Assembly (NCBI RefSeq): GCF_937138205.1
Contig: NZ_CAKZOT010000028.1
Coordinates: forward strand, 1-32,000
Length of the DNA: 32,000 bases
Direction: 5' to 3'
Source: an uncultured Rhodospira sp.
GTDB taxonomy: Bacteria > Pseudomonadota > Alphaproteobacteria > Rhodospirillales > Rhodospirillaceae
The position numbers and the translations under genes were made by a program. The first letter of the stretch is position 1. The number at the start of each line of letters is the position of its first letter. The notes under the pieces were generated by a model that was not told the DNA's origin, did no database searches, and saw only the letters and a list, made by a program, of their open reading frames with translations. Positions 2,129-27,249 of the stretch are shown in pieces.

Positions 2129-2136
2129 TCTTTTGT

Positions 2137-2174: not shown

Positions 2175-2261
2175 CGGCGCGACCTTGGCGTCGCCTTGCG
2201 ACGCCAGCTTTTTCAGACTGGGGCCGGCGCCCACGGCGCCGCTTCGCGGCGCCGACCAAGT

Positions 2262-6684: not shown

Positions 6685-6698
6685 CCGCCCGGCAAGCC

Positions 6699-9600
6699 TC
6701 ACCGGGCCTGCGCCAGGGGAAAGTCCTGGATGGTTCCGCCGCTCTTGAACTGGGCCTGCTGCCGGTATCCCTTCTCGCTGGCGAACAGCGGGACATGCTG
6801 CTTCACCTCGGTGCCCAGTTCCAGGACGGTGGCGACGCCATCGCCGCTTCGCGTGGCCTCTTCGAGAGCGGTCAGCACGGCATGACCGAACACACCGTTG
6901 CTCTCGTTGTACCCGTCCAGCGCTTCTTCTTCGGTCGAAGACGCTGCGAGAATGAAATACCCCGTTTCATTGCCGATCTCGCCGGGCGTGTTGGCCGGAA
7001 ACGCTCCCGAATGGCACGTATCAAGCATGACCAGGGTATTGGCCCCCATCAGGGAGCCGAACAGGGAGATGAGCCGGTCCTGGTCGACCCCCACCGCCGA
7101 CGCGCCGCTCGCCCCGGGCCCGTCGTGGGTCAGGAAGCGGTATCGCCGATCCTCGGTCAGGGTCCCATGCCCCGCCAGATAGACGACGACCGTATCGTTC
7201 GGCTTGATGCGTTGGCCGACCTCGGCGAACGCGCTCTCCAGCCCCGAGACCGTCGCATCCTGGTCGAACCGCCGCACAACAATGACGTCGTCGTACGCCG
7301 TCGCGGGCATGGCCAACAGCTTTTCGGACACAGAAAGCGCGTCACGCCGCGCAAAGGCCAGGTCCTGGACGGCGTCATAGACGTCGATCCCGACCGCGAT
7401 GACGAAGAGGATCGGTTTCTCCTGCTTCTCGGGTTCCGGAACCTGCAGGGAAAGGGTCACGGACTTGCCGAACACCCCCGAGGCGCCATAGGCCCTGACG
7501 GACACCGTGTTCAGACCGGGCTTGACCGCAATAATCCGGTCGGCCTGGACCGTGCTTTCCCCGTCCTCGCCCCCCTCGTCGGCAACCACCTCGGGCCGCT
7601 GGCGCGACAGGCCGCGAGTCAGGGTGCCCGTCGTGCGCCCGTTCAGGAACACAACGTGCCGGTCAATGGCTTCAGAGCCCGGAGTCATTTCATAGACCAG
7701 GCGAACCCGATCGAACCCAGGCGGCAGCGTGGACACCGCCGCGGGGGACGTTGTCTCCTCGGTTCGGCGGCGTGACAGCCCGCGACGGGCGTGCTCGGCC
7801 GGGAAACAGGCGGCATCGGCGCCATCCGCGTCGACAGCGCAGTACCGCACCAGACGCACCTTCGGCGCCTTGGCGATCGCCTCGGCCACGCCGGGCGCTT
7901 CTTCGCGGTCGGGCGCGTATTCCTCTTCTTCGACCCGTGGGGGTGTCTCCAGCTCTATCCGGCCCACCCGCTGGCGCATCCGGTCGATATCATAGAAGCG
8001 GCTGTAGAGCTGTGAGAAGTCGATCCAACGCGCGACATTGCGCCGGCCCCGGTTCTGGACGTAGCCGGCCAGCTCCTGGCCGCCGGCCGAATGCGCGAAG
8101 CGGCCGTCGGGCGACCACAGGATCCATCGCTGTCCGTCACCATGCACGAACAGAGCCGCGATTTCCCGCAAAACAGGGCCGGGCTCCAGCGCATACCACC
8201 GGATCGTTCCGTCTCGATGCGCGGCGACAAGGCGGTCGCCGTCGCCCGAGGCCACGACCCCGGAGGCCGCCGTCAGCACCACCTTTTCCCGTGTCACGGC
8301 CCCATCCCCGGAGAAGGTGGTCACCGCATAGTCACTGCCGATGGCGACCCCGCCACCCGGCAGCATCGTCGCACTGCGCGCGATGTCGCGGGGCCGCGCC
8401 ATGTCGAGTGGCTGCCCGGCGATTGACGGCGTGCGTCCGTCGCGCCATCCGGTCAGCCCCTCCGGCACCGACGGCGCCGAAAATGCCGGTGCGGCCTCGG
8501 GGGCGTCGGTGAGCGTCAACGTCCGCGCGTCGAACCGCAGGACCTTCGAGGTGTCCCCGGTGCGGAAAGTGAAATCAACGACCGCGCCATCGCGGGAGAC
8601 ACGGAAGACATCATCAAAGATGCCCCGGAAATCGGCGGTGGCCGGGCCTTGCCGAAATGCCACCGTGCCCGTTTCGCCCGTGATCCGGCCCCAGGCGGGG
8701 TCCCCGGTCGCGAACAGGACGTCCTGGTCAGGCGTGGTTTCCAGACGCGTCACGGCATCGCGGCTGACCGGGATATCGACGAACGCGTCGGGCCGCTCCA
8801 GGTCAGCCCAGCGCCGCACCACGATCTTCCGATCGGGGTTGACGAGTCCGCCGGAGGCCCAAAGCTCCGGCCCCGCCGCACCGGTCCGCCAGGCGACGGC
8901 ACTGAAAAACCGTTCGTCGGTGTCGGGACGATCGCCGGCAAGGGTCCGCGCGTGTTCCAGCGTATCGGCCTCCAGAATATCGACGCGGGGCTGGTCCACG
9001 TATGTCACGGCCAGCCACCGTCCATCGGGCGAAAAGCGCGCCTGGGCCGGCCGGCCGGATTCCGCCTGCCACGACTGAACGGTCTCGAACCCCACGCCGT
9101 AGACGCGAACCACCCCGTTGGTCGCCGCGGCCGCAAGGCGGCCATCGGGCGCGAACTCGACCCACGTCGTGGGCGCCCCAAGATCATCCGAGAAGACGCG
9201 TTGCAGCCGCTCGTTAATCACAATGATCCCGGCGGGATTGCGGGAGTGCGCGGTCGCGAGGCGGGTTTCGCGGGCCTCGGGCGCGGCGCGAAAGGTATCG
9301 ATGGCGTTGACAATGCCGCCGCTGGCCACGCGGTCGATGACATCAAGGCCGGAGGCAAAACGGATGAAGTACAGAAGGTTGAAACGCCGCCCCTGCTCGT
9401 CGGCGAAATAGCGGGCGCCCGTGAACCCGGCGGTGATGATGTGGCTTTCCCCCGGCCAATATCGGACGGCATTGAGAATGCCTTCCTCTTCGGGTCCGAT
9501 GGGCGTCCGGACGGTCTCAAGCAGTTCACCTGTGGTGGCGTCCCATAACCGCAACGTTTTATCGTCGGAAACAGTGGCCACGACCTTACCGTCGGCCCGC

Positions 9601-9794: not shown

Positions 9795-9840
9795 CGTCAA
9801 ACTCCCTGAGTCGTCTGTCATCGCCGGCGTGTGACGGGGG

Positions 9841-9880
9841 CTCCACTGGGAACTCCACTGGGAACTCCACTGGGGGCTCC
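9841..9880. repeat. 12-bp tandem repeat (ctccactgggaa x3 plus a partial copy) in the intergenic spacer
   Basis: ctccactgggaa ctccactgggaa ctccactggggg ctcc, read directly at 9841-9880. It lies between the stop of the SH3 lipoprotein gene (9984) and the start of the WD40-caspase gene. Confidence 0.75.
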
Positions 9881-9983
9881 GCCAGCCCTTCTCGTTCGGA
9901 TCACGTCACCCGCGCACGGTCCCGGTCCCCGCTTCGGAACCGGTTCCGCGCAAACGGTTGCAAAGCCGAGGCCCCAAGGGGCA

Positions 9984-11048
9984 TCAGCTGAGGGTGAAGG
10001 CGTCGGTTTGCGCCTTGGACGTCGCCACTTCCTCGTACACGCGATCCCGCTTCTCGACATTGGCCAGGCTGACGGCCTGCAGGTCGCCGACCTTGTCCCG
10101 CTCGTTCGAGGGCAGAACCACGTCGTCAACGCGCCCGGGAGGAAGCGGTTTTTCCGCCGGCCGGTTCTCGATTCGCGCCGAAGCCGGACCGGCCCCGCGA
10201 CCGCGACCGATCAGGAAATCGGCGATGTAGGCTTGGCCGCCGTTCGGATTGACGATCCGCGACCACCCGTTCGCGCTCGACAAGACTGTCACACGGGTTC
10301 CCCGGGTCAGGCGGCCCACCTTGTCGTACTGCGTTCCGGGTCCCGACCGCAAATTGGCGGTGCGCGTCACGCGCGCGCCACCGCCCTGGGACAGGCGCGG
10401 CGCATTGACCTCAAGCTGCCGGCCGCCGTTGTCCGCCGCGATCTGGTTGTAGACGGCCGCATAGCCCTCGGTTCGGTCGGAAATGTTGCTGGCGATGCGC
10501 TCCATCTGTCGCACGTCTTCCTGGTACCGTTCGCGCACAGCGGCCATGCGCTCCTCGGCGACGGCGCGCGTGATGCGGCCGGCGTCAAGGGCCTCGCGGA
10601 TGTCCTGGGCCTCGTCGTACCGGCACCCGCGCAACGCCTCGAACCGGGTCAGCAGCAGGTCGATGCGGGTGTTTTCCTCGCGAACACCCTTGATGGCCGC
10701 CTCCGTAAGTTCGACCGAATTGCCGGTCTGCCGTTGAAGGTCGTACAACAGAGTTCCGGCGAGCGCGGCCGCGGCGCCCAGACCGGCCCCGACAAACGGA
10801 TTCTCATCGGCGAGCAGCGCCCCCAGGGCACCCGCCCCCGCCCCCAACAGGACATTGCGGAGCACCTCGGTTTCGAACGTGTTGCCGGTGCTGTCCAGGG
10901 CGGCCCGTTGGGCGTAGCATTTGTCGTCCTTGTCGGACAGATACCCCCCGGGAAGGATGCTGCCGATATTCGTTGTCTGGCAACCGCCAAGGACCAGCGC
11001 CGTCGCGACCGCCGTTGTCATGAAAAAGCGAGACCTCGTGTACGTCAT
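9984..11048 (-). CDS. Lipoprotein with Gly-zipper region, coiled-coil segment and bacterial SH3 domain
   Basis: ATG at 11048 with GGAGG 8 nt upstream. The lipobox is MTYTRSRFFMTTAVATALVLGG/C. There is a Gly/Ala-rich zipper (LLGAGAGALGALLA...GAGLGAAAALAG) and an SH3_3-like segment (ANLRSGPGTQYDKVGRLTRGTRVTVLSSANGWSRIVNPNGGQAYIADFLI). Confidence 0.75.
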   Translation of the reverse strand: MTYTRSRFFMTTAVATALVLGGCQTTNIGSILPGGYLSDKDDKCYAQRAALDSTGNTFETEVLRNVLLGAGAGALGALLADENPFVGAGLGAAAALAGTLLYDLQRQTGNSVELTEAAIKGVREENTRIDLLLTRFEALRGCRYDEAQDIREALDAGRITRAVAEERMAAVRERYQEDVRQMERIASNISDRTEGYAAVYNQIAADNGGRQLEVNAPRLSQGGGARVTRTANLRSGPGTQYDKVGRLTRGTRVTVLSSANGWSRIVNPNGGQAYIADFLIGRGRGAGPASARIENRPAEKPLPPGRVDDVVLPSNERDKVGDLQAVSLANVEKRDRVYEEVATSKAQTDAFTLS

Positions 11049-11076
11049 AAAAGATGCCTCCGCTGAAAGCCCAGGA

Positions 11077-12465
11077 TCAGGACGGGTCACTGACATACCC
11101 CACCAACAAAGGGGTGGGAACGTCGGCGTGGTGCAAGGCCAGATGGAACGGACGGTCGGCGACAAAGGTGAACGGCTCGGAGCCCGCCGTGCGCAGGCCG
11201 ATGACCGCCGTCGCGGCGGCGGCGACGGTGCCTTGCTCCGTCACCTCCACCACCGAGCGCTGCACCACATTGGTCACCGACGGAGGGATGCTGCCCTGGA
11301 TGCCCTGAATGGCCGCGCTGTCGCCGAGCAACGCGCCCATGCCCAGGGAAGACAACAGGCGTGTGAGTTCCATTTTCCGGTCCAGTGACAGTCGTGGCAG
11401 GCTCACGGTTCCCTCGCCCGGCCGGGTCGTCTCCGTGTGGTCGGTTGTGAACAGCCAGGCCAAGGATTCGGACCGCGCCGCGCTCGGGTCGCTATCCGTA
11501 TCAGGCAGGTACAACGTCAGCGACAGCTTCGGGTCGATGTAAAACAGACGAACGACCTGCCCATGCTCCGTGCGGGCATAGGGGAAGACGCCGGCGCGGG
11601 ACATCATGGGAACCTGCACCGGGCTCCCTGCTCCGGTCTGGAACGGACCGTCGGCCGTATCGGTCGGATCGAAGGGCCGCAACCAATCGCCCTTGAAATA
11701 GAACGCGTTGGTCAGGACGAGGCTGGTCTGCCTGGGGAGCCTGTCGACGATGGCCTCGACCGCGTTGTTTGTCTCCGCCGCGACCCAGTCGTTGATCGTC
11801 TTGCTCGGTTCGCCGGTGGCGAAGTCGATGGAAAAGACTTCGCCACCGAACACGGACTGCATTTGGTGCGAATAGTCCGGCGTCAACGTGTAGCCCGGCG
11901 CCAGCCACAGGGCGTTGGCAAACGTCACCGTGGCTTTTTCCGACGGCGGCAAATCATTGATCGCGGCCAAACTCTCATACGGAACCCCCACGGCCTCACG
12001 GATGGACTCCCTGAGGGGGGCCCTGGTGGCCTCGCCGATCATGCTGACGGCGATCTCCATGCTGGCCGGCGACAGCACCACATTGCCGTCCCCCTGGTCC
12101 AGCAATCCCTGGTACACCCGGGCGCCCAGGGTTTCGGCTGGCGGATCAAGGGCGACGACCGACGAGGGGATCGCCATCGCGCCGGCCGGATCGGGTTGCC
12201 CGCCCTCCGCCACGACCGTTCCGCCACCGTTCTGCGAGGACTCCGTCCCCGTCTGGGCGAAGGCCGGTGAGGCCAACGACACCAGCGGCTGGCCGCCGCG
12301 ACCCCGCTCGATCCCCGTGCCCGGCGCCATGCCGTCAATGGCCAGGCCGCAGCCGGCCCACACGCCCACAGCCCCCATCAGGGCGGCCCGGCAGGTGCGC
12401 CGCAGCCCGGATCCGCGGACCGATGGACGGTACCGTCCCTCCACGGGGATTGCATGGCCGCTCAT
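11077..12465 (-). CDS. Serpin (serine protease inhibitor), exported or lipoprotein-like
   Basis: Serpin core motifs: LVLTNAFYFKGDWLRPFD, VQVPMMS, and the reactive-centre-loop hinge VVEVTEQGTVAAAATAVIGLRTAGS followed by FVADRPFHLAL. The N-terminus has RR plus a hydrophobic stretch plus VWAGC (signal/lipobox-like). GGAGAAAGGGA precedes the ATG at 12465. Confidence 0.9.
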   Translation of the reverse strand: MSGHAIPVEGRYRPSVRGSGLRRTCRAALMGAVGVWAGCGLAIDGMAPGTGIERGRGGQPLVSLASPAFAQTGTESSQNGGGTVVAEGGQPDPAGAMAIPSSVVALDPPAETLGARVYQGLLDQGDGNVVLSPASMEIAVSMIGEATRAPLRESIREAVGVPYESLAAINDLPPSEKATVTFANALWLAPGYTLTPDYSHQMQSVFGGEVFSIDFATGEPSKTINDWVAAETNNAVEAIVDRLPRQTSLVLTNAFYFKGDWLRPFDPTDTADGPFQTGAGSPVQVPMMSRAGVFPYARTEHGQVVRLFYIDPKLSLTLYLPDTDSDPSAARSESLAWLFTTDHTETTRPGEGTVSLPRLSLDRKMELTRLLSSLGMGALLGDSAAIQGIQGSIPPSVTNVVQRSVVEVTEQGTVAAAATAVIGLRTAGSEPFTFVADRPFHLALHHADVPTPLLVGYVSDPS

Positions 12466-12537
12466 GTCTTCGTCCCTTTCTCCAATCGGTGGCTGACTGG
12501 CACTGGGCCCGGATCACCCTCCGCCCGCACGCGCCGT

Positions 12538-14943
12538 TCAGGGGAGAACCCGGTAGGTCGACTTGGCCATGGACCAGCGCGCCCGCCGAACGTTGGAATC
12601 CGCGCCGACCGTAGGCTGACGCAGCTGTTTCGCCAAGGTATCGATGAAAGCCTGAGGACCAGAGACCGCCAGCACTTCGTCCAACAAGGCCTGATCCAGG
12701 GGCGCCTCGGACACCACGGCCACCAGCAGATACTCGCCCGCCGGGGGCGCAACGGTGAACCATTCGTAGCCAGTGTTCAAGACATCGGGGACAACCTGTG
12801 ACTGTCCCGGCCGAATGACATACCGGTCGATGTAGGATTGTGGAGCCGGGATGACGCGACTTACGGTGCCCGACGGGCCAACCTCGAACAGCGTGAAGTG
12901 TCCCCCCAGGTCCGTATCGACCCGGATGCGGATGCGGTCGCCGATGGGCCGGTCCGGGGTGGGTTCGACCCGGATGGCCAACTGGGCCTCGGACGGCGGC
13001 GGATTGAGTCCCCCATTGATGGCGTCTCCCGGATCGTTCGCCGCCGCGCCCGTGACGACGTCTGAACTCAGGACCGCCCGCCGCGCCGACAGACCCGGCG
13101 TCAGGCCAAGCCCGCAGATGTCACGGTTCCGCTGGCAGTACGCCTCTGATTCCTCCGTCACGTAGTCGAGCAACTCGGCATGGCTGACGACGCCGTCGTG
13201 GTCGAAATCGGCCTTCAATTCGGCGATGCCGGCAACGAAACGCCCGGTGAAGACCCCTTGGGGAACAGGAGTCTCGTCGTCGACCAGCGCGAGCTGGCTC
13301 GGGCTGACCGCCGTCCAGGTCGTGACATGGCTGTCCAGGGCCTCGAATCCAGGCGCCAGTTGAGCCGCGCGCGTGCTTCCCCGCGTGGGGCTCGCCACCG
13401 CCCGCCACGGCGTTCCTGACGGCATACGGCGCAGGCTTCGGTTCTGGGCGGGACCGAAACCCCGCGTCATGGTCCCCGCGTGGCAGCTGTCGATAACCAC
13501 GGTGACCTGTCTGTCGGGTATCCGCGCCAGCAGCGCGCGGATCTCGTCGTCGCGGATGACGTTCTTGACGCCGTCCTCCTGGGCGGATCCATCCTGGGCC
13601 ACCAGAACCTCATCGGTTCCGTCGCTTTCGTCACCGTCATCATCCGCCACGCTGAAACCATGTCCGGAAAACGACAGGAACACCCGGCCGCCGGGTTTCG
13701 AACCCTCGACAAGCCAGCTCTCGATCGCGGCGAGAATGCCGTCGCGTGTGGCGGCGGAGTCCTTGAGAACCTTCACCTGATCCGTCTGGTAGCCAAAATG
13801 CTCGACCAGGAGGGTTGCCATGTTGTCGGCGTCGACGGTCGAGCCGACCAGGTCGTTGAGGTCGCCGACATAGTCGTCAATGCCGATGACAAGCGCGCGG
13901 TCTGAATCCGTGGGGGTCGGCGGCGGCGGCGGTGCCGGCTGGCCATTGTAGCGCGGGAGCGCGACGTATTGCTCGATCCACGAGGCGTACGCCGAAACGC
14001 GGGTGTAGACGCTGGGTTTCGGAAGGCACGGGACGGCCTCCGAGCCGGGGCCCCAACTGGTCAATCCGATTTGATAGTATTGCCCGTCCGCCGCGCGGGT
14101 CAGAATGGGCCCCCCGGAGTCCCCTTTGCAGGTATCGGAGACCCCAACGCCGGCGCATATCTGGTTCTCGGTGATCAGCCCCCTCAGGTTCGGCGTCATC
14201 TGACGCCGGCAGTCCGGCACCGAGACCACCGGAACCTCCGCGCGCAGGAGCTGTTCCGACGTGGCGGTCCCGCGTCGATCCGTCCGCCCCCAGCCGACGA
14301 CGACCGCGTCTTGGCCGGATTGCTCGACCTGCGCGGCAACCGGTCCGACACCGAGGCGGACGGTCGGCACGTCAAGGTCGTCCTCCAGTTCCAGCAGCGC
14401 AATGTCGTGCAGCTCTCCGTTCGTGGAAATGTAGTCCGGATGAACAATGGCCCGAGTGACTTGCGACGCGGGGCCATAGGTACGGACCTTGCCGGGCGCC
14501 ACCACGTCGGGCCGACGGACGTTGCCGGCCTGCACAATGACCGTGGCGGTCCCCCGGACCGGATCCAGGATGACGCGGTTATCCTCATCGTAAACACAAT
14601 GCGCGGCGGTGAGCACCCAGCGGGGCGCGACCACGGTCCCGCCGCACATGATGTTCCCCTCGCGCTTTGCAATGAAGAGGAAGGCCTGATACGGCCAAGC
14701 GTTCGCGCGAGCGGGCCTGCCGCCGATGATCCGCGTCCCCCCCGAGGGGAGGACGGGACGGTTGGCGGGGCGCACCAGGCGGTCCTCACCGCTCGCCTGG
14801 TCACCGGACGGGTCTTGAGTCCCGCCCCGAACGATTTCGAACCGCGGCAGTCCGCCCTCTGCCCGCGCGCTGTTGCTTCCAAACAGGACCGCCACCGCGG
14901 CCACGGCGATCAGCAGCACCCCCAGGATTGAACGGTTCAGCAT
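12538..14943 (-). CDS. Exported fusion protein: trypsin-like S1 serine protease + caspase-like C14 domain + EF-hand-like loop + DUF4384-like C-terminal domain
   Basis: Signal peptide MLNRSILGVLLIAVAAVAVLFGSNSARA/EG. The S1 triad is present: RIIGG...LTAAHCV (His), DIALLEL (Asp), DTCKGDSGGP (Ser; the Asp six residues before it is the trypsin-type S1 pocket). A Pro-rich linker (PAPPPPPTP) follows. The caspase part has LVIGIDDY, FLSFSGHGFS (His) and VVIDSCHAGT (Cys). The DxDxDG loop is DFDHDGVVSHAELLDY, and the C-terminal beta-rich segment is IRIRVDTDLGGHFTLFEVGPSGTV...GEYLLVAVVS. Confidence 0.9.
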   Translation of the reverse strand: MLNRSILGVLLIAVAAVAVLFGSNSARAEGGLPRFEIVRGGTQDPSGDQASGEDRLVRPANRPVLPSGGTRIIGGRPARANAWPYQAFLFIAKREGNIMCGGTVVAPRWVLTAAHCVYDEDNRVILDPVRGTATVIVQAGNVRRPDVVAPGKVRTYGPASQVTRAIVHPDYISTNGELHDIALLELEDDLDVPTVRLGVGPVAAQVEQSGQDAVVVGWGRTDRRGTATSEQLLRAEVPVVSVPDCRRQMTPNLRGLITENQICAGVGVSDTCKGDSGGPILTRAADGQYYQIGLTSWGPGSEAVPCLPKPSVYTRVSAYASWIEQYVALPRYNGQPAPPPPPTPTDSDRALVIGIDDYVGDLNDLVGSTVDADNMATLLVEHFGYQTDQVKVLKDSAATRDGILAAIESWLVEGSKPGGRVFLSFSGHGFSVADDDGDESDGTDEVLVAQDGSAQEDGVKNVIRDDEIRALLARIPDRQVTVVIDSCHAGTMTRGFGPAQNRSLRRMPSGTPWRAVASPTRGSTRAAQLAPGFEALDSHVTTWTAVSPSQLALVDDETPVPQGVFTGRFVAGIAELKADFDHDGVVSHAELLDYVTEESEAYCQRNRDICGLGLTPGLSARRAVLSSDVVTGAAANDPGDAINGGLNPPPSEAQLAIRVEPTPDRPIGDRIRIRVDTDLGGHFTLFEVGPSGTVSRVIPAPQSYIDRYVIRPGQSQVVPDVLNTGYEWFTVAPPAGEYLLVAVVSEAPLDQALLDEVLAVSGPQAFIDTLAKQLRQPTVGADSNVRRARWSMAKSTYRVLP

Positions 14944-16604
14944 TGCGGGGCCCCTTGTGCGCAGGTGTACAAGGCGAACAATCCCAACCGATAGGACGCC
15001 GATCGCAATCGCTCTTCCATCCTGTCCGGCACATCAAGCGCACGCGTCGTGCCGTCCAGGCCACGCAACGCTTCGACCATGTCGGGCAATGGGCGATCCG
15101 TGGCGAGGCCGACCAGCAGATCGGCCCCGTAGGGGCGGCCGACCAGGATATCCTCCAGGATAAACGGCTCGGCCGGATCGCGCGGCCCGGCTTCCACCGC
15201 ATCGAGAGGGTAAAGGAACTGGACGGTGCCGTCGTTGGCCAGATTGACGAGCGTCAAGTAAGGGTACGTGAGGTCGTCCATGATCAGCGTCACCAGTTCC
15301 CCGTCGGCGTAGGTCGGCTTCGGGGGCGACGCCGCGATTGTCAAGGGGGCCATTTCGGCCAGCGCGGCGAACCGCAGATGGGCGCGAGCCTTGCTCACAA
15401 CGCCCTGCAATGCGTCGGCGTCGATGTCCTCGGCGACCACCGTATCAATGCCACTGATCACATCGCCGGTCGCCGGATCCCAGACGATGTCCGGCGTCTC
15501 GGTTACCGCGACGACCTGAACGCCCTCCAGTGGCGGCAGCCTCGCGGCGACCTCTCCGTGCACGGCCAGCCGGATGGGCCGATCGGGCATGGGAGCGGGC
15601 GAGGAGTGAGCGCCAGCGGCCGGTGACAAGTCCGCGTGCCAGTTCTCGTCACTGGCGACGATGCTGGGAATCTGCTGGCCCTGCGTTGCGGTCCTGATGT
15701 TCCGGATGATGTAGTCCTTGAACTCATCGAACCTGAGCACGCCGTCCCGGTCGGCATCCGCCGCGCCGCGCAGGCCCCGGGCGAAGTAGTAGCTCAGGGC
15801 GCCGCGCGGCACCGCCTGTCCGGACTCGTCGGGCAAGGCGATCTCCGGCGCGAGGCTGTCATCCAGCACGGCGGAAAACGAAAACAGGTTGTCGGCGATC
15901 GTCTCCTCGGCGCCCCCTGAGTCCACGTCCAATCCCTCGAACAGCATCGACTCATCGAGGTCCGCCATAAGGTCGCCCTCGACCTTGACGTTCGAGAATC
16001 GGTAGCGCGGTCGCACGCGCCGGTCGACGGCGCGGAAGGTCGTTCCCGAGTGGCAGGCGTCGACGACAAGGGCGACGGTGACGCCCTTGTCGCCAGCCTT
16101 GTCAACAAACGCGCCGATCTCGTCATCCAGGATGAAATCCTGGCGCCCGGGTCCGCGCCGTTCGAAGGCGTGCAGGGCCAGGAACTCGTCGTAGCCGTCC
16201 GCTTCTTCGCTATCGACGGCGGCGACGCGCTGCATTCCGTGGCCGGCATACGTCAGCAACAGCAGGTCACCGGGGTGCGCGCGCGCCAGGGCGCGATCCC
16301 ATGCCCCCACAACGGCCCCCCGGGTCGCCTGGTCGTCGAGAAGCACCGACAGATCCGTGATGCCCAGCGTTCGCAGCGTCTCGGCGATATCCCGCGCGTC
16401 ATTGACCGCGCCGCTCAGGTCCGAGAGGATGCCTTCCGGGTCGCGGTAGTCGTCGATGCCAACCACCACCGCCCGCCACTCGCCGGCCTGCGCTTGCGCG
16501 AGAGCCGGATCGGACACCATGCCCAGCAGCGCCGCGCCGGCAAGACTGCCGGCCAACAGCGCGGACGCCACGGGTCGGCACACTCTATTGGGCACAGACA
16601 CCAT
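14937..16604 (-). CDS. Exported caspase-like (C14) protein with EF-hand-like loop and DUF4384-like C-terminal domain
   Basis: I favour the ATG at 16604 (GAGGA 6 nt upstream); the track start is a GTG at 16625. Signal peptide: VASALLAGSLAGAALLGMVSDPALA/QA. The caspase part has AVVVGIDDY, LLLTYAGHGMQ (His) and LVVDACHSGT (Cys). The Ca-binding-like loop is DADRDGVLRFDEFKDYI. The 3' end overlaps the next gene's ATG by 7 nt (14937-14943). Confidence 0.85.
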   Translation of the reverse strand: MVSVPNRVCRPVASALLAGSLAGAALLGMVSDPALAQAQAGEWRAVVVGIDDYRDPEGILSDLSGAVNDARDIAETLRTLGITDLSVLLDDQATRGAVVGAWDRALARAHPGDLLLLTYAGHGMQRVAAVDSEEADGYDEFLALHAFERRGPGRQDFILDDEIGAFVDKAGDKGVTVALVVDACHSGTTFRAVDRRVRPRYRFSNVKVEGDLMADLDESMLFEGLDVDSGGAEETIADNLFSFSAVLDDSLAPEIALPDESGQAVPRGALSYYFARGLRGAADADRDGVLRFDEFKDYIIRNIRTATQGQQIPSIVASDENWHADLSPAAGAHSSPAPMPDRPIRLAVHGEVAARLPPLEGVQVVAVTETPDIVWDPATGDVISGIDTVVAEDIDADALQGVVSKARAHLRFAALAEMAPLTIAASPPKPTYADGELVTLIMDDLTYPYLTLVNLANDGTVQFLYPLDAVEAGPRDPAEPFILEDILVGRPYGADLLVGLATDRPLPDMVEALRGLDGTTRALDVPDRMEERLRSASYRLGLFALYTCAQGAPQC

Positions 16605-17577
16605 AGCGCTCCTCGGATACGCCACCCTGGCCGTAGAACACCTCGACCCTGCGGTTGATTTGCCAGCGCTCCTCCTGAGTGTATCCGCCCGGATTGCTCA
16701 GCCGCACAGGCACCCGTTCGCCGCACCACCGCACCCGCACGGATCCCGGGAAGCCGTTGGCCTGAAGATAATCCTTGAGGCGGAGCGCGCGCCGCTTTGA
16801 CAGCTCCAGGTTGTGGATATCCGATCCTCGATCGTCGGTGTGGCCGATCACAGTGACGGAATGGGGCGTTTCCTTGCGCAGGATCGGCAACAGCCGCTCG
16901 GCCGAAACCTGGCCACGGGGATCGAACTCGGCCTTGTTTGTGACAAACGTGATTTGCGGCGTCTTTTTCGGAACGGCGATGCCCCGAACGGTCGGCGCGA
17001 AGTAAGGCGTCGGCGCGCCGCCGCGGGTCGTGGGCTCCACCGGAATGGAACTGAGGGACAGCGCCTCCGATGCCGCGTCGTGCACCGCCAGGATCGTCTC
17101 CTGGTCGGGCGGCGTGCGGGTGAAGCGCGTATCGTCAATCAGTTCGAGGGCTTTGAAGTACTGCTCGGTGGCGTCGCTGAACCGTTTCCGGGACATGGCG
17201 AGTTCGCCGAGCAGACGCCGCAATTCCCAATGATCCCCGTACGCGAGAAAGGCCTCGGCGTCCGCGATGACGCCGGAAACGTCCTCGCCCTTTTCGAGCC
17301 TGAGCCGAGCAAGTCGTGCCGCCAACAGGCCAAGGTTCGACCGCGCATCGATCCGGTTCTGCGGCGGGCAATAGAGGTCGATGTCCTCGATCAGACCGCT
17401 GGCTGTCGTGATATCAGCCTGCTTGAGCGCGGCGACAAATTCTTTCAGCGCACTGCGACAAGAGTCGGCACCGCCCGGCGTCGCACTGGCAGGCCCCGGA
17501 CTTAAAAACAAAAACAAACCGACGCACAGAACCGCGCACCGTACATGCTTTGATAAACGGTCTTCCTCGTCCAACAC
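16585..17577 (-). CDS. Exported helical (TPR-like) protein with OmpA-family peptidoglycan-binding C-terminal domain
   Basis: OmpA_C pattern: ITFVTNKAEFDPRGQVSAERLLPIL...VTVIGHTDDRGSDIHNLELSKRRALRLKDYL. Signal peptide: KHVRCAVLCVGLFLFLSPGPASA/T. I favour the GTG at 17577 (GGAGGGGGG just upstream); the track start at 17673 would add 32 non-signal residues. The 3' end overlaps the next gene by 20 nt. Confidence 0.8.
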   Translation of the reverse strand: MLDEEDRLSKHVRCAVLCVGLFLFLSPGPASATPGGADSCRSALKEFVAALKQADITTASGLIEDIDLYCPPQNRIDARSNLGLLAARLARLRLEKGEDVSGVIADAEAFLAYGDHWELRRLLGELAMSRKRFSDATEQYFKALELIDDTRFTRTPPDQETILAVHDAASEALSLSSIPVEPTTRGGAPTPYFAPTVRGIAVPKKTPQITFVTNKAEFDPRGQVSAERLLPILRKETPHSVTVIGHTDDRGSDIHNLELSKRRALRLKDYLQANGFPGSVRVRWCGERVPVRLSNPGGYTQEERWQINRRVEVFYGQGGVSEERYGVCAQ

Positions 17578-17968
17578 TAGCCCCCCTCCAATACAAAGAA
17601 AGCGTTCGACGATCGGAATGCCAATACGATCAAAGGGAAATATCGTTTCTTTGTCCCCGAACCCATGAACCATAGGGAGGCGTATTTAAATATTGCATTT
17701 TGTGGTGTTTATCCTATTATAGATTTTCTGTCAAGGGGCACGGAACAGATTCGTCGGCAAGGTGCTGTTGAATGGTATTGCCGCGAGGCGGCACCCGGGC
17801 TCGGCCTTTCAATCGTCAGTCCGTCGCCCCGCGGCGACGGAAGGTGAACGGTGAAACCAGCAGTCGACAATTGAATACGGCGCCGATTCTCGTGCCTGGG
17901 GACGTGACTCCCCGAATTGGCCGGCAAAGCATTTAGGCGATTCCGATTTGATCTTGTTGGAGGGGGCA
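17578..17968. promoter_or_regulatory. Divergent intergenic control region with a strongly AT-rich patch
   Basis: The ~390-bp spacer lies between the minus-strand six-gene operon and the plus-strand STAND gene. The 17680-17740 stretch (gtatttaaatattgcattttgtggtgtttatcctattatagattttctg) is far more AT-rich than the rest of the window. A perfect 8-bp hairpin, ccgtcgcc-ccgc-ggcgacgg, sits at 17821-17840. Promoters are inferred, not mapped. Confidence 0.4.
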
Positions 17969-20900
17969 GTGGGTGACGTCCGGGTCTTCATTTCATCCCC
18001 AGGGGATGCACAGGCGGAACGCGCCCGCATTGAGAGGGCAATCGATCGACTAAACGGCCTGATAGGGGGCTCCGTCCGCCTCAAGGCGATCCGTTGGGAA
18101 TCGGGCTACTACACGGCGGCCAGCACCTTCCAGACCCAGATTCCGGAAGCGGCGGAGTGCGACATCGTCCTGGCGGTTCTGCGCCACCGACTGGGGACGC
18201 CGCTGCCCGAGGACTTCAAGCGGATGTCGGACGGCGCGCCATATCCCAGCGGGACCGCCTACGAGATCCTCTCGGCGGTCCACACCAGCCAGCACAAAGG
18301 GACCCCCGACGTCTACGTGTTCCGCTACGCGCACCCACCCCAGGTGGGCAATATCGACGACACCGCGGCGCTGACCCAGACCCGGGAGGACTGGGAACGC
18401 CTGAAGGGGTTCTTCCAGTCCTGGTTCGAGACGGATACCGGTCAGTTCAAGGCTGCCTTCCATCGATATGACAGCGTCGACGTGTTGGAAGGTCAGGTGG
18501 AGGATCTCCTCCAAACCTGGGTCGAAGACCATCTGAACACGGGCCAGCTGGTCGAGTGGCCGATCCACCTCAAGGGCTCGCCTTTTCGAGGCCTTGCCGC
18601 GTTCGGCGCCCGGCACGCCGCCGTCTTCTTCGGTCGCCGGCGTGAAACCCTGCGCGCCGCCGAGGCGCTCAAGGATGCGGCGGACCGGGGCACACCGGCG
18701 CTCCTGCTGGTCGGCCCAAGTGGTTCCGGAAAATCCTCCCTGGCGCGCGCTGGACTGATCCCGCATCTGACCGCGCCGGGCGCGGTCTCGGACGTCGACC
18801 TGTGGCGGGTGGCCAGCCTCTGTCCGGGTGAACATCCCGACGGGCCCGTTGCGGCCCTGGCCGCGCGCCTGTTCACGGCCGAGCGGGATATGGAGCCGGA
18901 CGATGAGGGCTGGCCGCGCGCCCTGCCGGAACTTGCCCACGGCGACTTCGCGACCCCGGACGCCCTTGCGGCGTTGCTCGCCGGCACGAACACCACTGCG
19001 GCAACAGGCCCCATCCTGGCCGCATTGGACCGCGTGGCAGAGGAAACCCGGCGCACGGAAGCGTTCGACAGGCCGGTCACCGTCCGCCTCTTGCTCCTCG
19101 TGGACCAGTTCGAGCAGCTTTTCGCCGACGCCGTGGATCAGGCAGACAGAACCGCGTTCACAACCCTGCTGCGGGCGCTTGTGGAGACGCGACGCGTCTG
19201 GGTGATCGGCACGCTGCGAGCCGACTACTATGAAGCCTTCATTGCCGACCCCAACCTGCTGCCCCTGAAGCGCGACGGCGCCCACGTCGATCTCCGTCCG
19301 CCCGGCATGGACGCGATGGCCGAGATCATCCGCGCCCCGGCACGGGCGGCCGCCCTCGTCTACGAGGTCGATGCCAAGGGTACCGGTCTCGACGAGCGGA
19401 TTCTGGCCGAGGCCGATCGGCCCGACATGCTGCCCCTGGTCCAGTTCACGCTGAACCGGCTGTTCGAGGTCCGGAGCGAGGCGAGCGGCGAAATCCGGCT
19501 GACCCATGCCGCCTACGACGCCATGGGGGGGCTTGACGGGGCCATCAATCAGGAAGCCGACCGGGCCATCGCCAATCTCGGCGAGGCGGACCGGAAAACC
19601 TTGCCGCGCCTGCTCCGCCTGATGGTCGTGCCAGCCACCAACGCGGGCTCGGCCAGCGAGGCCTCGCGCCGCATGGCCGTGCGGCCGATCCCCTGGCGCA
19701 CGGCCACGGGCGACCCGGCGCAACGCCGGCTCGTGGAGGCCTTGATCGAAGCGCGTATTCTGTATCTGTCCGGAAGCGGCCCAAAGGCGCACGTTCAGCT
19801 CGCGCACCAGCGCGTCCTGGAAAGCTGGGCGCTCGCACGCAAGATCGTCGCCGACAACGTGGACTTCTTCCGCATCCGCCAGGATGTGGAGGACGCCCGC
19901 GTCCGCTGGCAGACCAGCAACCGCCCCCGCGACCGCCTGATCCCCCCAGGCGTCGCGCTGGCCGAGGCGGAATCCCTCGCCGCCCGGTTCCAGGATGAGT
20001 TGACCGAGGACACGCGCGGCTTCATCCGCGCTTCGGGCCGGCGGGCGCGGCGGCGCCAGAGGCTCACCACCATGGCCGCGGCGGTCTTCGCGGGCGTCGC
20101 GGTGCTCGCCGCTTGGTCGTACATGCAGGCGGAAACCGCCCGGAATGAGGCGGCCGGCAACTACCAGATCGCCCTGAATGTGGTCGACGGCCTCGCCCTG
20201 GACATCATCGAGGGCCTGCAAACCAACTGGAGCGTCCCCGTCGAGGAGAAGCTTTACGTCGCCGACAGGATCGAGGGAAATCTCGGCGACCTCGTGGCGG
20301 AGGTTGAAGACGACCAGGTACTGAGGTTGCGGTACGCGGATGTCCTGGCGTCGACCGCATACATGCTTGCCCTCGTCGGTCATCACCGCGCGGCGGAAGA
20401 CAGCGCGCAAAACGCCGCCCGACAATTGGCGACGATCGATCCGGACACCATCGACACACGCGGCTGGGACAAGGCCCGGCCGGCGGCGTTGACCCAGGCC
20501 CGGGTGAACGTCGCTTTGGCCTTGGGACGATGGCAGGCCTTCGATCAAGCCGCCGTGGAGCGCCATCTCCGCAGCGCAGAGGACAGCCTGGCCCGCCTGT
20601 CCGCCTCGGAGACGGAGGTCACGGCTTCCGACGTTGCAGAGCTCAGGGCATGGATGGACGATCTTCGGATCACCCTGATGATCGCCAGACGCGACACCCT
20701 GGCCTACCAGGAAGAGCATATGGCGGCGGTGGAGCGCCGCCGGGCCGACCTCGAACGGGCCCGCGACAATGGCGACACCCGCGCGGCACGCCTCATCGCC
20801 TTCCACCTTGCCAAGCTCGCCGTGGGCGATGCCGCCTTCGCGGCGGGAACCGGAGCGCGCGACTTCGAGGACCGGCACAAACGCGCGTCGGAGATTTCGG

Positions 20901-23209
20901 CGGAAGTGGCCTCGGTTTTCGTCGAGCCATCGGATCCGGCCCTCGTCTATATCGAGGCCAGCATGGACCTGACCCGGGCGGCGAACCTCGCCGAACGGGG
21001 TGGACAGGACGCCACAGCGTTGGCGACCCGCGCCATCCAGCGCTTGTTCGGCCTTGTCCAGCAGGATTTCCTGAACCTGGAATGGCGGCACATCCTGACC
21101 CACGCGCTGGGCCGGCGGGCACAGTGGGCGTCGGCGCATTCCAACGCGACCCTGTCGTTGGGCGACGCCCTGGCCGCGCGCCAGATCGCCCTGTCCAGTC
21201 TCAGGGACGGGGGTCTGACCCGCGATGTGTTCGCGACCGCGAACTGGGCGGACTACGTCACCGGCGCGCATCGCGCGGTGGGCAGCCAGGATGCCCGCGC
21301 CGCCTTCGCCCGCATTACCACGCGTGTCGACGGTTTGGCGGCCGACGGCGTGGACGATCCCGCCTTGGCGCGGTTCAAGTTCCTCGCGAAACAGGGGCTG
21401 GCGCGCCACCTGTTGAAACGGGCCGAGGCCGGACCCGCGCGAGCCGACGATGCGTCGAGGCGCCGTCTCCTGCTGGAGGCGAAGGAAGCGGCCATGGCCG
21501 CTCTCGACACCCTGCCAGACCGGCCGCCGGCCGACGGGACCGCCAGCTTGCCGACGGAGATCGACCGGCACGCCGCACTCACTGATTTGGTGCGAATCGC
21601 CGAACAAATGACGGAGACGCGCCTGCTTGACCAGGCGCTCGACGACGCCCTGCGGCAAAACGCAGTGCTGTTGTCCCTGACCGGCGGGGGCGCGGTTTGG
21701 CATCAGGACCGGGGCGCTTTGCGTGCGCGCCTGGCGGATACGCGCGCCGAACAGGACCGGTGGCAGGAGGCTGGGGAGGCCTATGCAAGGGCGGCGCGCG
21801 ATTTCGCCAAGGCAATGGCCGCGGACGCCCCGACGGCGGCGCGGCTGCAGAACCTCTTGGCCTATGCCCAACGCGCGCTCAAAGCCCAGGCCAAGACAGG
21901 GGACTGGGCAGCCGCCAAGGCCCTGTTTGCCGAGGTCACGGAGATTTTGGACGGATTGGACACGCTTCCCGGCGATCCAAGGACCCGTTTCGACTCTTGG
22001 ATCGCGTTGACCGAGGCCCTTGAAACAGCGGCGCCCTCTCCCTCCGCGTTTCAAGACACGATTGTCGATCTCCAGTCCCAGGCGGACCGCGTCACGACGC
22101 GCCTGCAGCGTCCGCCCACCGAGACGGACCCGGCGCACGGAAATCGAGCGCACGCCATCGATTTCCGCCCGTTGGACCTGCCAACCGCCGCCGGATCGAG
22201 CGCACAGGCCGGCGTCCCGGACGGCTCCATCGGCTGGGAGGCGCCGCCTCTCATGTCCGGGCCATGGACCACGCTGGTTGGCGCGGACTTCGAGACAGCC
22301 GTCGGCCATCTCAAGGCCATGCAGCATCATGTGCCTGGAGAGAACCGCCGGCAATACATCCGCATTCGGACCTTGCGTCTCCCGTTCTACCAGGACGCCC
22401 GGGTTCTCGAAGCTGAGTATCCGGGACCGGATGGTCGCATCCTGTCCCTGGGGGCTTTGCGGGCGAAAGGCGTCACCCGTCTTCTGGACGGCACGGAACT
22501 GTACATTGTTGCCGCCAACAGCAGCGGCCTGGAGATCGATACCCACTCGCTGGCGGCTGGGTACCTTAAGTTCCGACAAGCCTACACGGCCCCGCACGGC
22601 AGCGGACCGCCCGACCGCATTGTCGAGAGCCTGGCCGATCTACACCTGCAGCCGGGCGTCGATCCGAGCACGCGGGAGCGGATCGGGGCCTTGATCCGCC
22701 CTCTGGCGGTCTGGCGCGATCCGGATGCGCCCGGGGGATGGCGGGCCACGGCGGCCGTTCTGCGGGGCAACACACTGCTCCACGCGGCATTTCGTCTCGA
22801 TCAAGCGGGCACCGTCACCATGACCGAGCATCGGGTCGTGGCCTCGGGGCTGCTTGTCCGCCGGCGCTGGTTCAGCACGGACGGTTCGCTGGTGACCGAC
22901 AGACCGCACGGTCTCGACGTTCGCGCGCTCGATCTTCCGGACGTCCAGGCGGAACCGCGCATTTTGTTGCGCTTGGCGGAGGGCAATGACGCGGCGACAT
23001 CGCTCGGCGCGGTCACGCTCATCGACATGGCGATGGCACACGCCAAGCTGGCCACGGAGCACGGGGAGATGACCCAGGCCGCCTATGCGGGCGAATTGGC
23101 GCGGGCCGCCCGCACCCTGCGAGACCAGGATCGCCCGCAGGTGGCTGAACGCTATGAACGGGAGTTGAGGGCCCTCTCGGCGTCGACCTCCGGCGAACAG
23201 GCTGAATAA
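17969..23209 (+). CDS. Giant DUF4062 (TIR-like) - STAND P-loop NTPase - single TM helix - long helical region - unknown C-terminal domain protein
   Basis: GTG at 17969, 5 nt after GGAGG; the track start is a TTG at 17948. The N-terminus VRVFISSPGDAQAERARIERAI...ECDIVLAVLRHRLGT...PSGTAYEILSA matches the DUF4062/TIR-like pattern (FISSxxxDxxxER...CDhhhhhhGxRYG...SxTExEY). The STAND entry motif is PFRGLAAFGARHAAVFFGRRRE. Walker A is LLLVGPSGSGKSSLARAGL (nt 18713-18739) and Walker B is LLLLVDQFEQLF. A sensor/WH region has LPLVQFTLNRLFE. A basic cluster plus hydrophobic helix, RRARRRQRLTTMAAAVFAGVAVLAAWSYM, lies at nt ~20063-20122. About 680 aa of Ala/Leu/Arg-rich helical sequence follow, then a ~350-aa domain with no motif I recognise. 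Confidence 0.85.
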   Translation: MGDVRVFISSPGDAQAERARIERAIDRLNGLIGGSVRLKAIRWESGYYTAASTFQTQIPEAAECDIVLAVLRHRLGTPLPEDFKRMSDGAPYPSGTAYEILSAVHTSQHKGTPDVYVFRYAHPPQVGNIDDTAALTQTREDWERLKGFFQSWFETDTGQFKAAFHRYDSVDVLEGQVEDLLQTWVEDHLNTGQLVEWPIHLKGSPFRGLAAFGARHAAVFFGRRRETLRAAEALKDAADRGTPALLLVGPSGSGKSSLARAGLIPHLTAPGAVSDVDLWRVASLCPGEHPDGPVAALAARLFTAERDMEPDDEGWPRALPELAHGDFATPDALAALLAGTNTTAATGPILAALDRVAEETRRTEAFDRPVTVRLLLLVDQFEQLFADAVDQADRTAFTTLLRALVETRRVWVIGTLRADYYEAFIADPNLLPLKRDGAHVDLRPPGMDAMAEIIRAPARAAALVYEVDAKGTGLDERILAEADRPDMLPLVQFTLNRLFEVRSEASGEIRLTHAAYDAMGGLDGAINQEADRAIANLGEADRKTLPRLLRLMVVPATNAGSASEASRRMAVRPIPWRTATGDPAQRRLVEALIEARILYLSGSGPKAHVQLAHQRVLESWALARKIVADNVDFFRIRQDVEDARVRWQTSNRPRDRLIPPGVALAEAESLAARFQDELTEDTRGFIRASGRRARRRQRLTTMAAAVFAGVAVLAAWSYMQAETARNEAAGNYQIALNVVDGLALDIIEGLQTNWSVPVEEKLYVADRIEGNLGDLVAEVEDDQVLRLRYADVLASTAYMLALVGHHRAAEDSAQNAARQLATIDPDTIDTRGWDKARPAALTQARVNVALALGRWQAFDQAAVERHLRSAEDSLARLSASETEVTASDVAELRAWMDDLRITLMIARRDTLAYQEEHMAAVERRRADLERARDNGDTRAARLIAFHLAKLAVGDAAFAAGTGARDFEDRHKRASEISAEVASVFVEPSDPALVYIEASMDLTRAANLAERGGQDATALATRAIQRLFGLVQQDFLNLEWRHILTHALGRRAQWASAHSNATLSLGDALAARQIALSSLRDGGLTRDVFATANWADYVTGAHRAVGSQDARAAFARITTRVDGLAADGVDDPALARFKFLAKQGLARHLLKRAEAGPARADDASRRRLLLEAKEAAMAALDTLPDRPPADGTASLPTEIDRHAALTDLVRIAEQMTETRLLDQALDDALRQNAVLLSLTGGGAVWHQDRGALRARLADTRAEQDRWQEAGEAYARAARDFAKAMAADAPTAARLQNLLAYAQRALKAQAKTGDWAAAKALFAEVTEILDGLDTLPGDPRTRFDSWIALTEALETAAPSPSAFQDTIVDLQSQADRVTTRLQRPPTETDPAHGNRAHAIDFRPLDLPTAAGSSAQAGVPDGSIGWEAPPLMSGPWTTLVGADFETAVGHLKAMQHHVPGENRRQYIRIRTLRLPFYQDARVLEAEYPGPDGRILSLGALRAKGVTRLLDGTELYIVAANSSGLEIDTHSLAAGYLKFRQAYTAPHGSGPPDRIVESLADLHLQPGVDPSTRERIGALIRPLAVWRDPDAPGGWRATAAVLRGNTLLHAAFRLDQAGTVTMTEHRVVASGLLVRRRWFSTDGSLVTDRPHGLDVRALDLPDVQAEPRILLRLAEGNDAATSLGAVTLIDMAMAHAKLATEHGEMTQAAYAGELARAARTLRDQDRPQVAERYERELRALSASTSGEQAE

Positions 23210-23860: not shown

Positions 23861-23931
23861 GCAGCCGGGCGCGGGTGTCGGGCGCCGAGGCCATGCGCCG
23901 CACGCACCGGACAGCGGCCCACGCCGACGGG

Positions 23932-25717: not shown

Positions 25718-25842
25718 CGATGGGATCGGCGGTGCTCTGGGTGGAAGGCGCGCGGGCAGGCCCTGGGCCGGTCCGCTCAGAGGGAACAACAACAGCGACC
25801 GACGACACGCGCAATGGACGCCGGCGCAAGGGGCATAACGGC

Positions 25843-27226: not shown

Positions 27227-27249
27227 GATCCAGTTGGTGAGTGTGGGCG

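Follow-up and report, generated by a model that had tools for sequence, protein, structure and literature searches.

Does an operon of exported proteases that lies head to head with the gene of a large transmembrane (TM) NTPase form one signalling system across the bacterial envelope together with it, or are these two independent units placed side by side? The question is raised by a stretch of 32,000 nucleotides (nt) from an uncultured Rhodospira sp. (contig NZ_CAKZOT010000028.1, positions 1 to 32,000), which is referred to as the window and has a GC content of ~67%. Open reading frame (ORF) and Pfam reading places six tightly packed genes at 6699-17577, all on the minus strand, and a gene for a STAND protein (hereafter STAND) diverges from them. 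The earlier note on this DNA saw here a serpin-gated extracytoplasmic proteolytic cascade tied to the STAND NTPase. Of this proposal the exported, serpin-checked module is supported by conservation and matching specificities; the coupling to STAND is not supported by synteny. We suggest, with a probability of about 0.6, that the operon is a conserved alphaproteobacterial unit for an extracytoplasmic, envelope-anchored protease module, and that STAND is a separate, self-contained gene and not a fixed partner of the operon.

The operon encodes an OmpA-like protein, a C14 (metacaspase-like) peptidase, a trypsin-C14 fusion, a serpin, an SH3 lipoprotein and a WD40-C14 protein (Table 1), and Pfam matches, export signals and conservation bear out the earlier description of these six genes as exported. 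No curated NCBIfam family exists for any of the seven proteins, STAND included. For several genes the ORF bounds are wider than the chosen starts. The GTG codons at 17577 and 17969, each with TTGGAGGGGG upstream, are judged plausible starts of the first operon gene and of STAND; the former has TTGGAGGGGGG upstream and is preceded by a strong ribosome-binding site. Genes 2, 5 and 6 start with ATG at 16604, 11048 and 9794. Given the likely starts, the operon genes are separated by overlaps or short gaps, gene 2 overlapping gene 1 by 20 nt at its 5' end and gene 3 overlapping gene 2 by 7 nt.

All six products carry predicted export signals. Hydropathy and motif inspection find a hydrophobic N-terminal signal, preceded by a basic stretch, in each of them, and conservation adds to these calls: the signal positions are kept in the orthologues of two related loci, L003 and L006, and in the Rhizobium counterparts. 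Orthologues of gene 1 (57-59% identity) retain the signal peptide in L003 and L006, those of the serpin also have an N-terminal hydrophobic segment, and the lipobox of gene 5 follows the pattern L-(G/A)-(G/A)-C, with the subsequent QTTN identical in both loci. The orthologues of gene 6 are 60% (L003) and 72% (L006) identical. The anchoring parts of the module are the OmpA-type peptidoglycan-binding protein, the lipoprotein and the DUF4384 domains. Matches of gene 1 to the Pal/YiaD/YfiB-type OmpA domains of NCBIfam all stay below cut-off. The C-terminus of gene 2 is weakly similar to the DUF4384 domain of a Rhizobium protein, and its L006 orthologue has a weak DUF4384 match. We also note that the N-terminal half of the gene 5 product has a weak, far sub-threshold similarity (E = 1.5e-4, 21 bits; cut-off 300) to TagQ, which is the lipoprotein in the outer membrane that belongs to the TagQRST/PpkA envelope-signalling pathway of Pseudomonas.

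The catalytic residues are in place. The His/Cys dyads of the three C14 domains (AGHG/DACHSG, SGHG/DSCHAG and AGHG/DTCHSG) and the trypsin triad (TAAHC, DIALL, GDSGGP) were described as intact in the earlier note, and all these motifs could be located. The three C14 proteins score 52, 72 and 43 bits with PF00656 (cut-off 21.4). The S1 domain of the fusion matches PF00089 with 162 bits and has, together with the triad, the R/IIGG and DTCKGDSGGP sequences of trypsin-like peptidases. The serpin is a full-length match to PF00079 (255 bits), and its hinge is of the inhibitory type, with small residues, P15 Gly, P14 Thr and an Ala-rich P12-P9 segment. Canonical EF-hand loops follow two of the three C14 domains (DADRDGVLRFDE and DFDHDGVVSHAE).

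Four independent sequence features converge on one specificity. The first is the zymogen site [RK]/[IV][IV]GG, seen in 12 of 12 members of the fusion family (Arg in 10, Lys in 2); as Arg or Lys precedes I/V-I/V-G-G in every member, the trypsin domain is predicted to be a zymogen opened by an Arg/Lys-specific cut. The second is Asp189 of the S1 pocket, found in 9 of the 12 fusions, that of the window included. The third is the Asp two residues before the catalytic Cys of the C14 domains, which we take to be the S1 Asp that forms the basic-P1 pocket of metacaspases; the D-x-C-H motif is kept in 10 of the 12 fusions. The fourth is the reactive-centre loop of the serpin, where the hinge GT-x-AAAATA is followed, in 9 of 9 operon-linked serpins, by an Arg and then S, T or A; counted from the P17 Glu, this Arg is residue 16 or 17, within one residue of the expected P1. 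Hence, the C14 domains are predicted to be Arg/Lys-specific, with the EF-hand loops suggesting Ca2+ control, and the motifs taken together support a putative serpin-checked, Arg-specific extracytoplasmic protease module. Two fusion proteins stand apart: P0052 (Siculibacillus) and P0061 (Xanthobacter sp. AM11) have an intact trypsin triad and have lost the C14 Cys, P0052 also the His. They are apparently pseudo-caspase variants.

We suggest that the module might work as follows. The trypsin zymogen would be activated by an Arg-specific protease, which may be the trypsin domain itself or a C14 partner, and this activating protease is possibly Ca2+-dependent via the EF-hand loops. The serpin would trap the active protease 1:1 as a suicide substrate. 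Since the cognate serpin would be consumed in this 1:1 reaction, it would cap the activity stoichiometrically, and net proteolysis would appear only above a threshold. The output, which is our guess, may be the cleavage of envelope or incoming foreign proteins, for defence, death or remodelling.

The operon is a genuine, conserved unit. The metagenomic loci L003 (a 4.96-Mb genome), L089/L090 and L006 carry all six genes in unchanged order, with 44-72% protein identity to the window. A four-gene core, made of the OmpA-domain protein, the C14 protein, the trypsin-C14-DUF4384 fusion and the serpin, is complete in L004, L011 (Minwuia), L088 (plasmid pRle248d of Rhizobium leguminosarum bv. viciae 248) and L010 (R. 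lusitanum), and the operon is partial in L005, L008 (an alphaproteobacterial metagenome-assembled genome), L009 (Paracoccaceae), L023 (Hyphomicrobiaceae) and L029. By tblastn, the fusion occurs on 224 plasmid records, among them 93 of Rhizobium and 46 of Pseudosulfitobacter, and on 53 of the 224 the match spans 80% or more of the query. A genome scan used generic trypsin motifs, and most of its 80 loci are plain trypsins. For the serpin, SH3 and WD40-C14 proteins, the operons of the window and L006 are mutual closest relatives, and those of L003 and L089 pair at ~70% identity.

The accessory genes around the core vary. The window has the SH3 lipoprotein and the WD40-C14 protein, and elsewhere DUF4384 proteins or C14-PG_binding-FGE-sulfatase proteins are found. 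The accessory gene in Rhizobium encodes a TM Ser/Thr kinase; it follows the serpin gene on the same strand (L088 12638-15043; L010 13649-16042), and its product has a predicted TM helix at aa 310-340 and a predicted periplasmic part of ~460 aa. A relationship between this ectodomain and the tail of STAND was considered, and the comparison shows the two to be unrelated. A 196-aa protein with neither a signal peptide nor a Pfam family adjoins operon-type loci (L088 4000-4590; also L008, L010, L023, L029 and L053) at 40-78% identity and does not occur in the window. A dedicated regulator in the cytoplasm is one possible role for it.

STAND does not appear to travel with this unit. The earlier note took STAND and the protease/serpin genes for one system; their adjacency is limited to the window and L006, which are one clade. 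The context sample consists of ~14 operon-type loci whose flanks could be read and of 6 loci with STAND; STAND adjoins the operon in 2 of the ~14 and 2 of the 6, respectively, and the divergent arrangement of the window recurs only in L006. As the window and L006 are closest relatives, the adjacency represents one evolutionary event. The sister clade (L003, L089/L090) has the same six genes without STAND, with an Opp transporter or further envelope genes there, and no nSTAND1 relative lies within ~10 kb in L004, L005, L008-L011, L023, L029 and L088. L007 holds the sole other full-tail STAND homologue of the indexed search and has no operon. The three nearest TPR-tailed homologues (L093-L095) sit among unrelated genes, and C14, trypsin and serpin genes are missing from the neighbourhoods of L007 and L093, L094 and L095 alike. 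The plasmid matches to nSTAND1 (Streptomyces, cyanobacteria) and to the fusion (Rhizobium, Pseudosulfitobacter) barely overlap in taxonomy. Metagenome scans with one alignment each of the tail and of its C-terminal domain gave no confirmed locus.

The spacer between the divergent genes was described before as AT-rich and about 390 bp long. With the starts given above, which are plausible, it is 391 bp and falls into the 1-kb bin with the lowest GC content in the window (0.586 at 17001-18000 versus ~0.67). Sigma-70-like promoter sites and Rfam families were not found in it, and comparison with L006 and L003 gave no convincing conserved block. Its sole repeat, a 23-nt inverted pair (17582-17604 / 17944-17966, 74% complementary), is formed by the ribosome-binding regions (TTG..TTGGAGGGGG) of the divergent gene pair, which are nearly identical. 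Pfam (E <= 0.01) detects an effector-associated adaptor domain in none of the seven proteins, the NTPase is placed in the cytoplasm and the proteases outside it, and no conserved neighbourhood of NTPase and protease genes was found. A trans-envelope coupling of STAND to the operon is unproven and unlikely.

By its own architecture, STAND is apparently a complete single-chain protein with effector, switch, TM helix and sensor, for which the operon would not be needed. The switch is the nSTAND1 NTPase (PF20703, 271 bits, profile positions 1-378 of 379), with GPSGSGKS as Walker A and LLLLVDQ as Walker B motif. It is followed by a single hydrophobic helix (aa 706-726) immediately preceded by RRARRRQR, and then by a tail of ~1000 aa. 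The polybasic plus hydrophobic helix element is found in all 14 family members that were read. The topology proposed in the earlier note, with one TM helix and a tail facing the compartment of the proteases, is plausible. The DUF4062 match of the head stays below cut-off (PF13271, 20.4 bits versus 24.7, E = 6e-4). The close homologues P0146 and P0169 carry a precomputed PF13271 match, and the head weakly matches the PADLOC candidate PDC-S60. Its structural model (predicted local distance difference test score, pLDDT, 73) has alternating beta-alpha elements; Foldseek returned nothing with E <= 1e-3, and its weak top matches include several TIR domains and a nucleoside 2'-deoxyribosyltransferase. 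The only match of a profile search against the PDB, to mitoribosomal mL98, was spurious. Recent experiments identify DUF4062 as a TIR-like NADase effector both in the single-gene defence systems Swarozyc and Evangelion and in human TEP1 (bioRxiv 10.64898/2026.05.01.722283; 10.64898/2026.06.25.731849). The motifs RWE and GTAYE are invariant in the head, and we do not equate the Glu of GTAYE with E97 of KpSwz.

The STAND family is large. We detected 2292 homologues, which have the N-terminal ~700 aa in common at 50-60% identity; their C-terminal parts are of TPR, WD40, trypsin-like or other types. In an exhaustive HMMER search, 1139 cluster representatives carry the tail; a word-indexed tail profile search recovered no protein other than the source and P0122. 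The heads that precede the complete tail are TIR_2-nSTAND1, TIR or nSTAND1. The last ~220 aa of the tail occur also behind Ser/Thr kinases and Sel1/TPR proteins, Pkinase-TM-Sel1-domain proteins among them, and in the proteins checked they mostly follow a single TM helix. This C-terminal domain matches no Pfam family, recurs in hundreds of cluster representatives and has a structural model of low confidence (pLDDT 53, from three sequences). The domain looks like an extracytoplasmic sensor that has not been described before, and these distributions support the tail as a general, outward-facing module of sensor type. Throughout the DUF4062-like/nSTAND1 family, including P0122-P0220, the polybasic stretch and helix lie between the NTPase and the repeats, and the TPR or WD40 sensors of this family would be outside the cytoplasm. 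Periplasmic sensors are predicted for some STAND systems (Dore et al. 2023, 10.1101/2023.09.22.558884), and in the literature consulted we found no discussion of this arrangement in the DUF4062-like/nSTAND1 family. The STAND gene of the window draws attention to a very large, little-discussed STAND class with apparently periplasm-facing sensors, and it exposes an unannotated sensor-type domain of ~220 aa common to STAND proteins and Ser/Thr kinases.

Table 1. Features of the window, with positions in the whole stretch (a slash in the activation site marks the cut; aa, amino acids).
Feature	Position	Strand	Details
Gene 1, exported OmpA-like peptidoglycan-binding protein	16585-17577	-	ORF 16585-17673; Pfam OmpA 44 bits; N-terminal part helical
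Gene 1, OmpA domain	~16693-16950	-	
Gene 2, exported C14 (metacaspase-like) peptidase with EF-hand loop and divergent DUF4384-like C-terminus	14937-16604	-	ORF 14937-16625; Pfam Peptidase_C14 52 bits
Gene 2, C14 His	16236-16247	-	AGHG
Gene 2, C14 Cys	16044-16061	-	DACHSG
Gene 2, EF-hand loop	15723-15758	-	DADRDGVLRFDE
Gene 3, exported trypsin-C14-EF-hand-DUF4384 fusion	12538-14943	-	ORF 12538-14943; Pfam Trypsin 162 bits, Peptidase_C14 72 bits, DUF4384 37 bits
Gene 3, activation site	14719-14733	-	GTR/IIGG
Gene 3, H57	14596-14610	-	TAAHC
Gene 3, D102	14392-14406	-	DIALL
Gene 3, D189...S195	14107-14136	-	DTCKGDSGGP
Gene 3, C14 His	13657-13668	-	
Gene 3, C14 Cys	13474-13491	-	
Gene 3, EF-hand loop	13174-13209	-	
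Gene 3, DUF4384	~12700-12945	-	
Gene 4, exported inhibitory-type serpin	11077-12465	-	ORF 11077-12465; Pfam Serpin 255 bits, profile positions 5-370 of 370
Gene 4, reactive-centre loop	11182-11238	-	EQGTVAAAATAVIGLR, followed by TAG
Gene 5, lipoprotein with Gly/Ala-rich hydrophobic segment and C-terminal bacterial SH3 domain	9984-11048	-	ORF 9984-11165; Pfam SH3_3 51 bits
Gene 5, lipobox	10980-10991	-	LGGC, followed by QTTN
Gene 6, exported WD40 beta-propeller with C-terminal C14 domain	6699-9794	-	ORF 6699-9821; Pfam WD40 51 bits, Peptidase_C14 43 bits; C14 at aa 810-1028
Gene 6, C14 His	7164-7175	-	AGHG
Gene 6, C14 Cys	7005-7022	-	DTCHSG
Divergent spacer	17578-17968	.	391 bp
STAND gene	17969-23209	+	ORF 17948-23209; 1746 aa; Pfam nSTAND1 271 bits, AAA_16, DUF4062 20.4 bits (cut-off 24.7)
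STAND, DUF4062-like head	~17978-18550	+	
STAND, nSTAND1 NTPase	18581-19930	+	Walker A 18713-18736
STAND, polybasic stretch and TM helix	20039-20125	+	
STAND, C-terminal domain of ~220 aa after helical tail	~22229-22870	+	aa ~1428-1640
TrkA_N and RyR protein	2576-5476	+	966 aa; N-terminal TM segments
Patatin, CBASS-type phospholipase-like	5473-6684	+	PADLOC 3e-42; NCBIfam CBASS_lipase 9e-32, below cut-off
IS66 transposase fragment	23300-24097	+	Profile positions 148-281 of 284; directly after STAND stop codon
ORF with weak glycosyltransferase-2 match	23932-25053	-	Overlaps IS66 fragment
LexA	25720-26571	+	LexA_DNA_bind and Peptidase_S24
DUF2336 protein	27241-28449	+	
PAS-LuxR regulator	28409-29605	+	

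Several points weigh against the reading of a conserved protease operon beside an independent STAND gene. The C14 dyad is lost in 2 of the 12 fusions, P0052 and P0061, and Asp189 is replaced in 3 of the 12. By a strict count from the P17 Glu, the Arg of the window serpin is at P2 and not at P1, and its placement at P1 assumes an offset in loop length. What is said here of cleavage specificity, inhibition by the serpin, Ca2+ control and localisation is read from motifs. The context sample is small. The divergent arrangement has been retained although the proteins have diverged to ~55-70% identity, which could reflect selection for linkage. In Rhizobium, moreover, the operons carry the TM Ser/Thr kinase with its periplasmic domain, and coupling to some membrane-spanning signaller may be a recurring theme.

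Among the other explanations, we consider first that the operon is itself an envelope-level immune or suicide module and that 2576-24097 is a defence island, in which the patatin with the RyR/TrkA_N protein, the operon and STAND would be independent defence genes, clustered as such genes commonly are. The patatin matches CBASS-type phospholipase effector models, the STAND head weakly matches PDC-S60, DUF4062 is a proven defence effector, and the IS66 fragment lies at the end of the region. The operon contexts differ among L003, L089 and the window, and the STAND homologue of L007 adjoins a patatin 47% identical to that of the window and a weakly SLATT-like protein. The PADLOC 'caspase' matches, on the other side, are generic domain matches, in L003 and L089 the operon sits among housekeeping genes (Opp transporter, ribonucleotide reductase, methyltransferase), and we know of no defence phenotype for an exported C14/trypsin/serpin operon. 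We regard this explanation as doubtful. The stretch does look like a variable region carrying defence-like genes, and the patatin and RyR/TrkA_N genes, which overlap by 4 bp, may be a separate defence-like pair.

Tail-bearing STAND and this type of patatin occur together in 2 of 3 loci, the third (L006) ending on that side. In L007, the patatin and a 622-aa protein with a weak SLATT_1 match are encoded at 6153-9246 on the minus strand, beside the STAND homologue at 955-6036. The 622-aa protein was compared with the RyR/TrkA_N protein of the window and is unrelated to it. For the LexA, DUF2336 and PAS-LuxR genes further downstream, we see no link to the operon or STAND.

The operon could also be an ordinary secreted or surface protease set, serving nutrition, matrix turnover or host interaction, in which the serpin would only guard the periplasm of the producer during transit, as AprI/Inh do with secreted metalloproteases. 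Every operon product is predicted to be exported, some secreted proteases are known to be encoded together with a periplasmic inhibitor, and plant-associated Rhizobium strains often carry the fusion gene on large replicons. However, the module seems built for retention and not for release, with an OmpA peptidoglycan anchor, its lipoprotein and partners of the DUF4384 or PG_binding type; the zymogen site and the threshold are typical of cascades under regulation, and the module is also present in free-living phototroph-like and marine metagenomic lineages. Such a role is improbable.

To the view that the operon and STAND are one trans-envelope system, signalling via the periplasmic tail to the NTPase and TIR-like head or in reverse, we give very little weight: it can draw on the arrangement common to two loci (spacers of 313-391 bp, operon proteins 44-72% and STAND N-terminal halves 61% identical), on a tail that very probably shares the compartment of the proteases and evolves fast like a sensor (35% identity versus 61% for the N-terminal half), and on the single-pass kinase of the Rhizobium operons, but the adjacency of one clade, the operons and STAND genes found apart from each other, the missing EAD-type adaptor, the unrelated kinase ectodomain and the spacers without a common element speak against it. 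A narrower form, in which only in the lineage of the window and L006 the STAND tail came to serve the serpin-gated, Arg-specific module as its substrate or sensor, has an even slimmer chance. If it were true, proteolysis triggered by a breach, phage or toxin would be relayed across the inner membrane to NTPase oligomerisation and a TIR-like NADase, and the locus would be a bacterial trans-envelope immune relay joining a clotting-like cascade to an NLR-like receptor.

The separate, conserved protease operon remains the reading that we prefer, and it offers a concrete model, open to test, of a protease cascade in the bacterial envelope that is controlled by a threshold. For most bacterial serpins the physiological target, and for most bacterial metacaspases the role, is to our knowledge not established; bacterial serpins and exported metacaspases would gain here a testable partner logic. 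As Rhizobium leguminosarum, which is grown in pure culture, carries a close version of the operon on one of its replicons, the model is directly testable.

As to known systems, the earlier note knew of none with such a composition, and our limited literature searches agree with it: no description of this operon as a system was found, and a search combining serpin, caspase and Rhizobium leguminosarum gave only an unrelated cyanobacterial paper. Within these searches the composition is undescribed as a system, and the operon is a new combination built from known parts. A survey of prokaryotic caspase homologues reported that some operons of Alphaproteobacteria hold several metacaspases, that 14 metacaspase operons include OmpA domains, and that many metacaspases begin with a helix, probably a signal peptide (Asplund-Samuelsson et al. 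2012, PMC3501461). The words serpin and trypsin each have 0 occurrences in that paper, and neither the present operon nor its specificity logic is defined there.

In NTPase conflict systems, caspase and trypsin domains are cytoplasmic effectors recruited via EAD adaptor domains (Kaur et al. 2020, PMC7159879; 2021, PMC8195603, where nSTAND1 was named); the word 'serpin' is absent from both papers. The window resembles them in its nSTAND1 NTPase, putative TIR-type head, repeat-type sensor and nearby caspase and trypsin genes, and differs in that the proteases are exported, no adaptor is found by Pfam and the neighbourhood is not conserved. With Swarozyc, Evangelion and the human TEP1/NWD1 proteins, STAND would have in common an N-terminal DUF4062-like domain in effector position; in TEP1/NWD1 a STAND ATPase and then a repeat sensor come after it, in the order found in the window. 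STAND differs in having nSTAND1 and not NACHT, a TM helix that would put the sensor outside, and a DUF4062 match below threshold.

The closest working parallels to the protease module are the metacaspase-serpin pairs of plants and the serpin-regulated zymogen cascades of animals. AprI/Inh and ecotin are reversible tight-binding inhibitors, of folds unrelated to serpins, that act against exported proteases. Like them, the window serpin would be an inhibitor whose gene lies in the protease operon or whose product belongs to the same compartment; in contrast to them, it would be consumed 1:1, with threshold behaviour as the result. In plants, the Arg/Lys-specific C14 metacaspases AtMC9 and AtMC1 are held by the suicide serpin AtSerpin1, and metacaspase activation is Ca2+-dependent. 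The operon would share with these pairs an Arg/Lys-type C14 peptidase and an inhibitory-type serpin, and differs from them in being bacterial, exported and encoded in one operon, with a chymotrypsin-fold domain fused to C14 and with peptidoglycan and outer-membrane anchors. In animal coagulation, complement and the arthropod CLIP/Toll/prophenoloxidase cascades, extracellular zymogens with trypsin-like S1 pockets are cut after Arg or Lys before I/V-I/V-G-G, and Arg-serpins set the threshold. The operon differs from these cascades in having one S1 domain, the rest being C14, in its place in the bacterial envelope, and in that no recognition module was found for it. A zymogen cut site, a trypsin-like S1 pocket and an Arg-serpin are the putative common parts, and in this formal sense the module would resemble both the clotting and Toll cascades of animals and the metacaspase-serpin control of plants.

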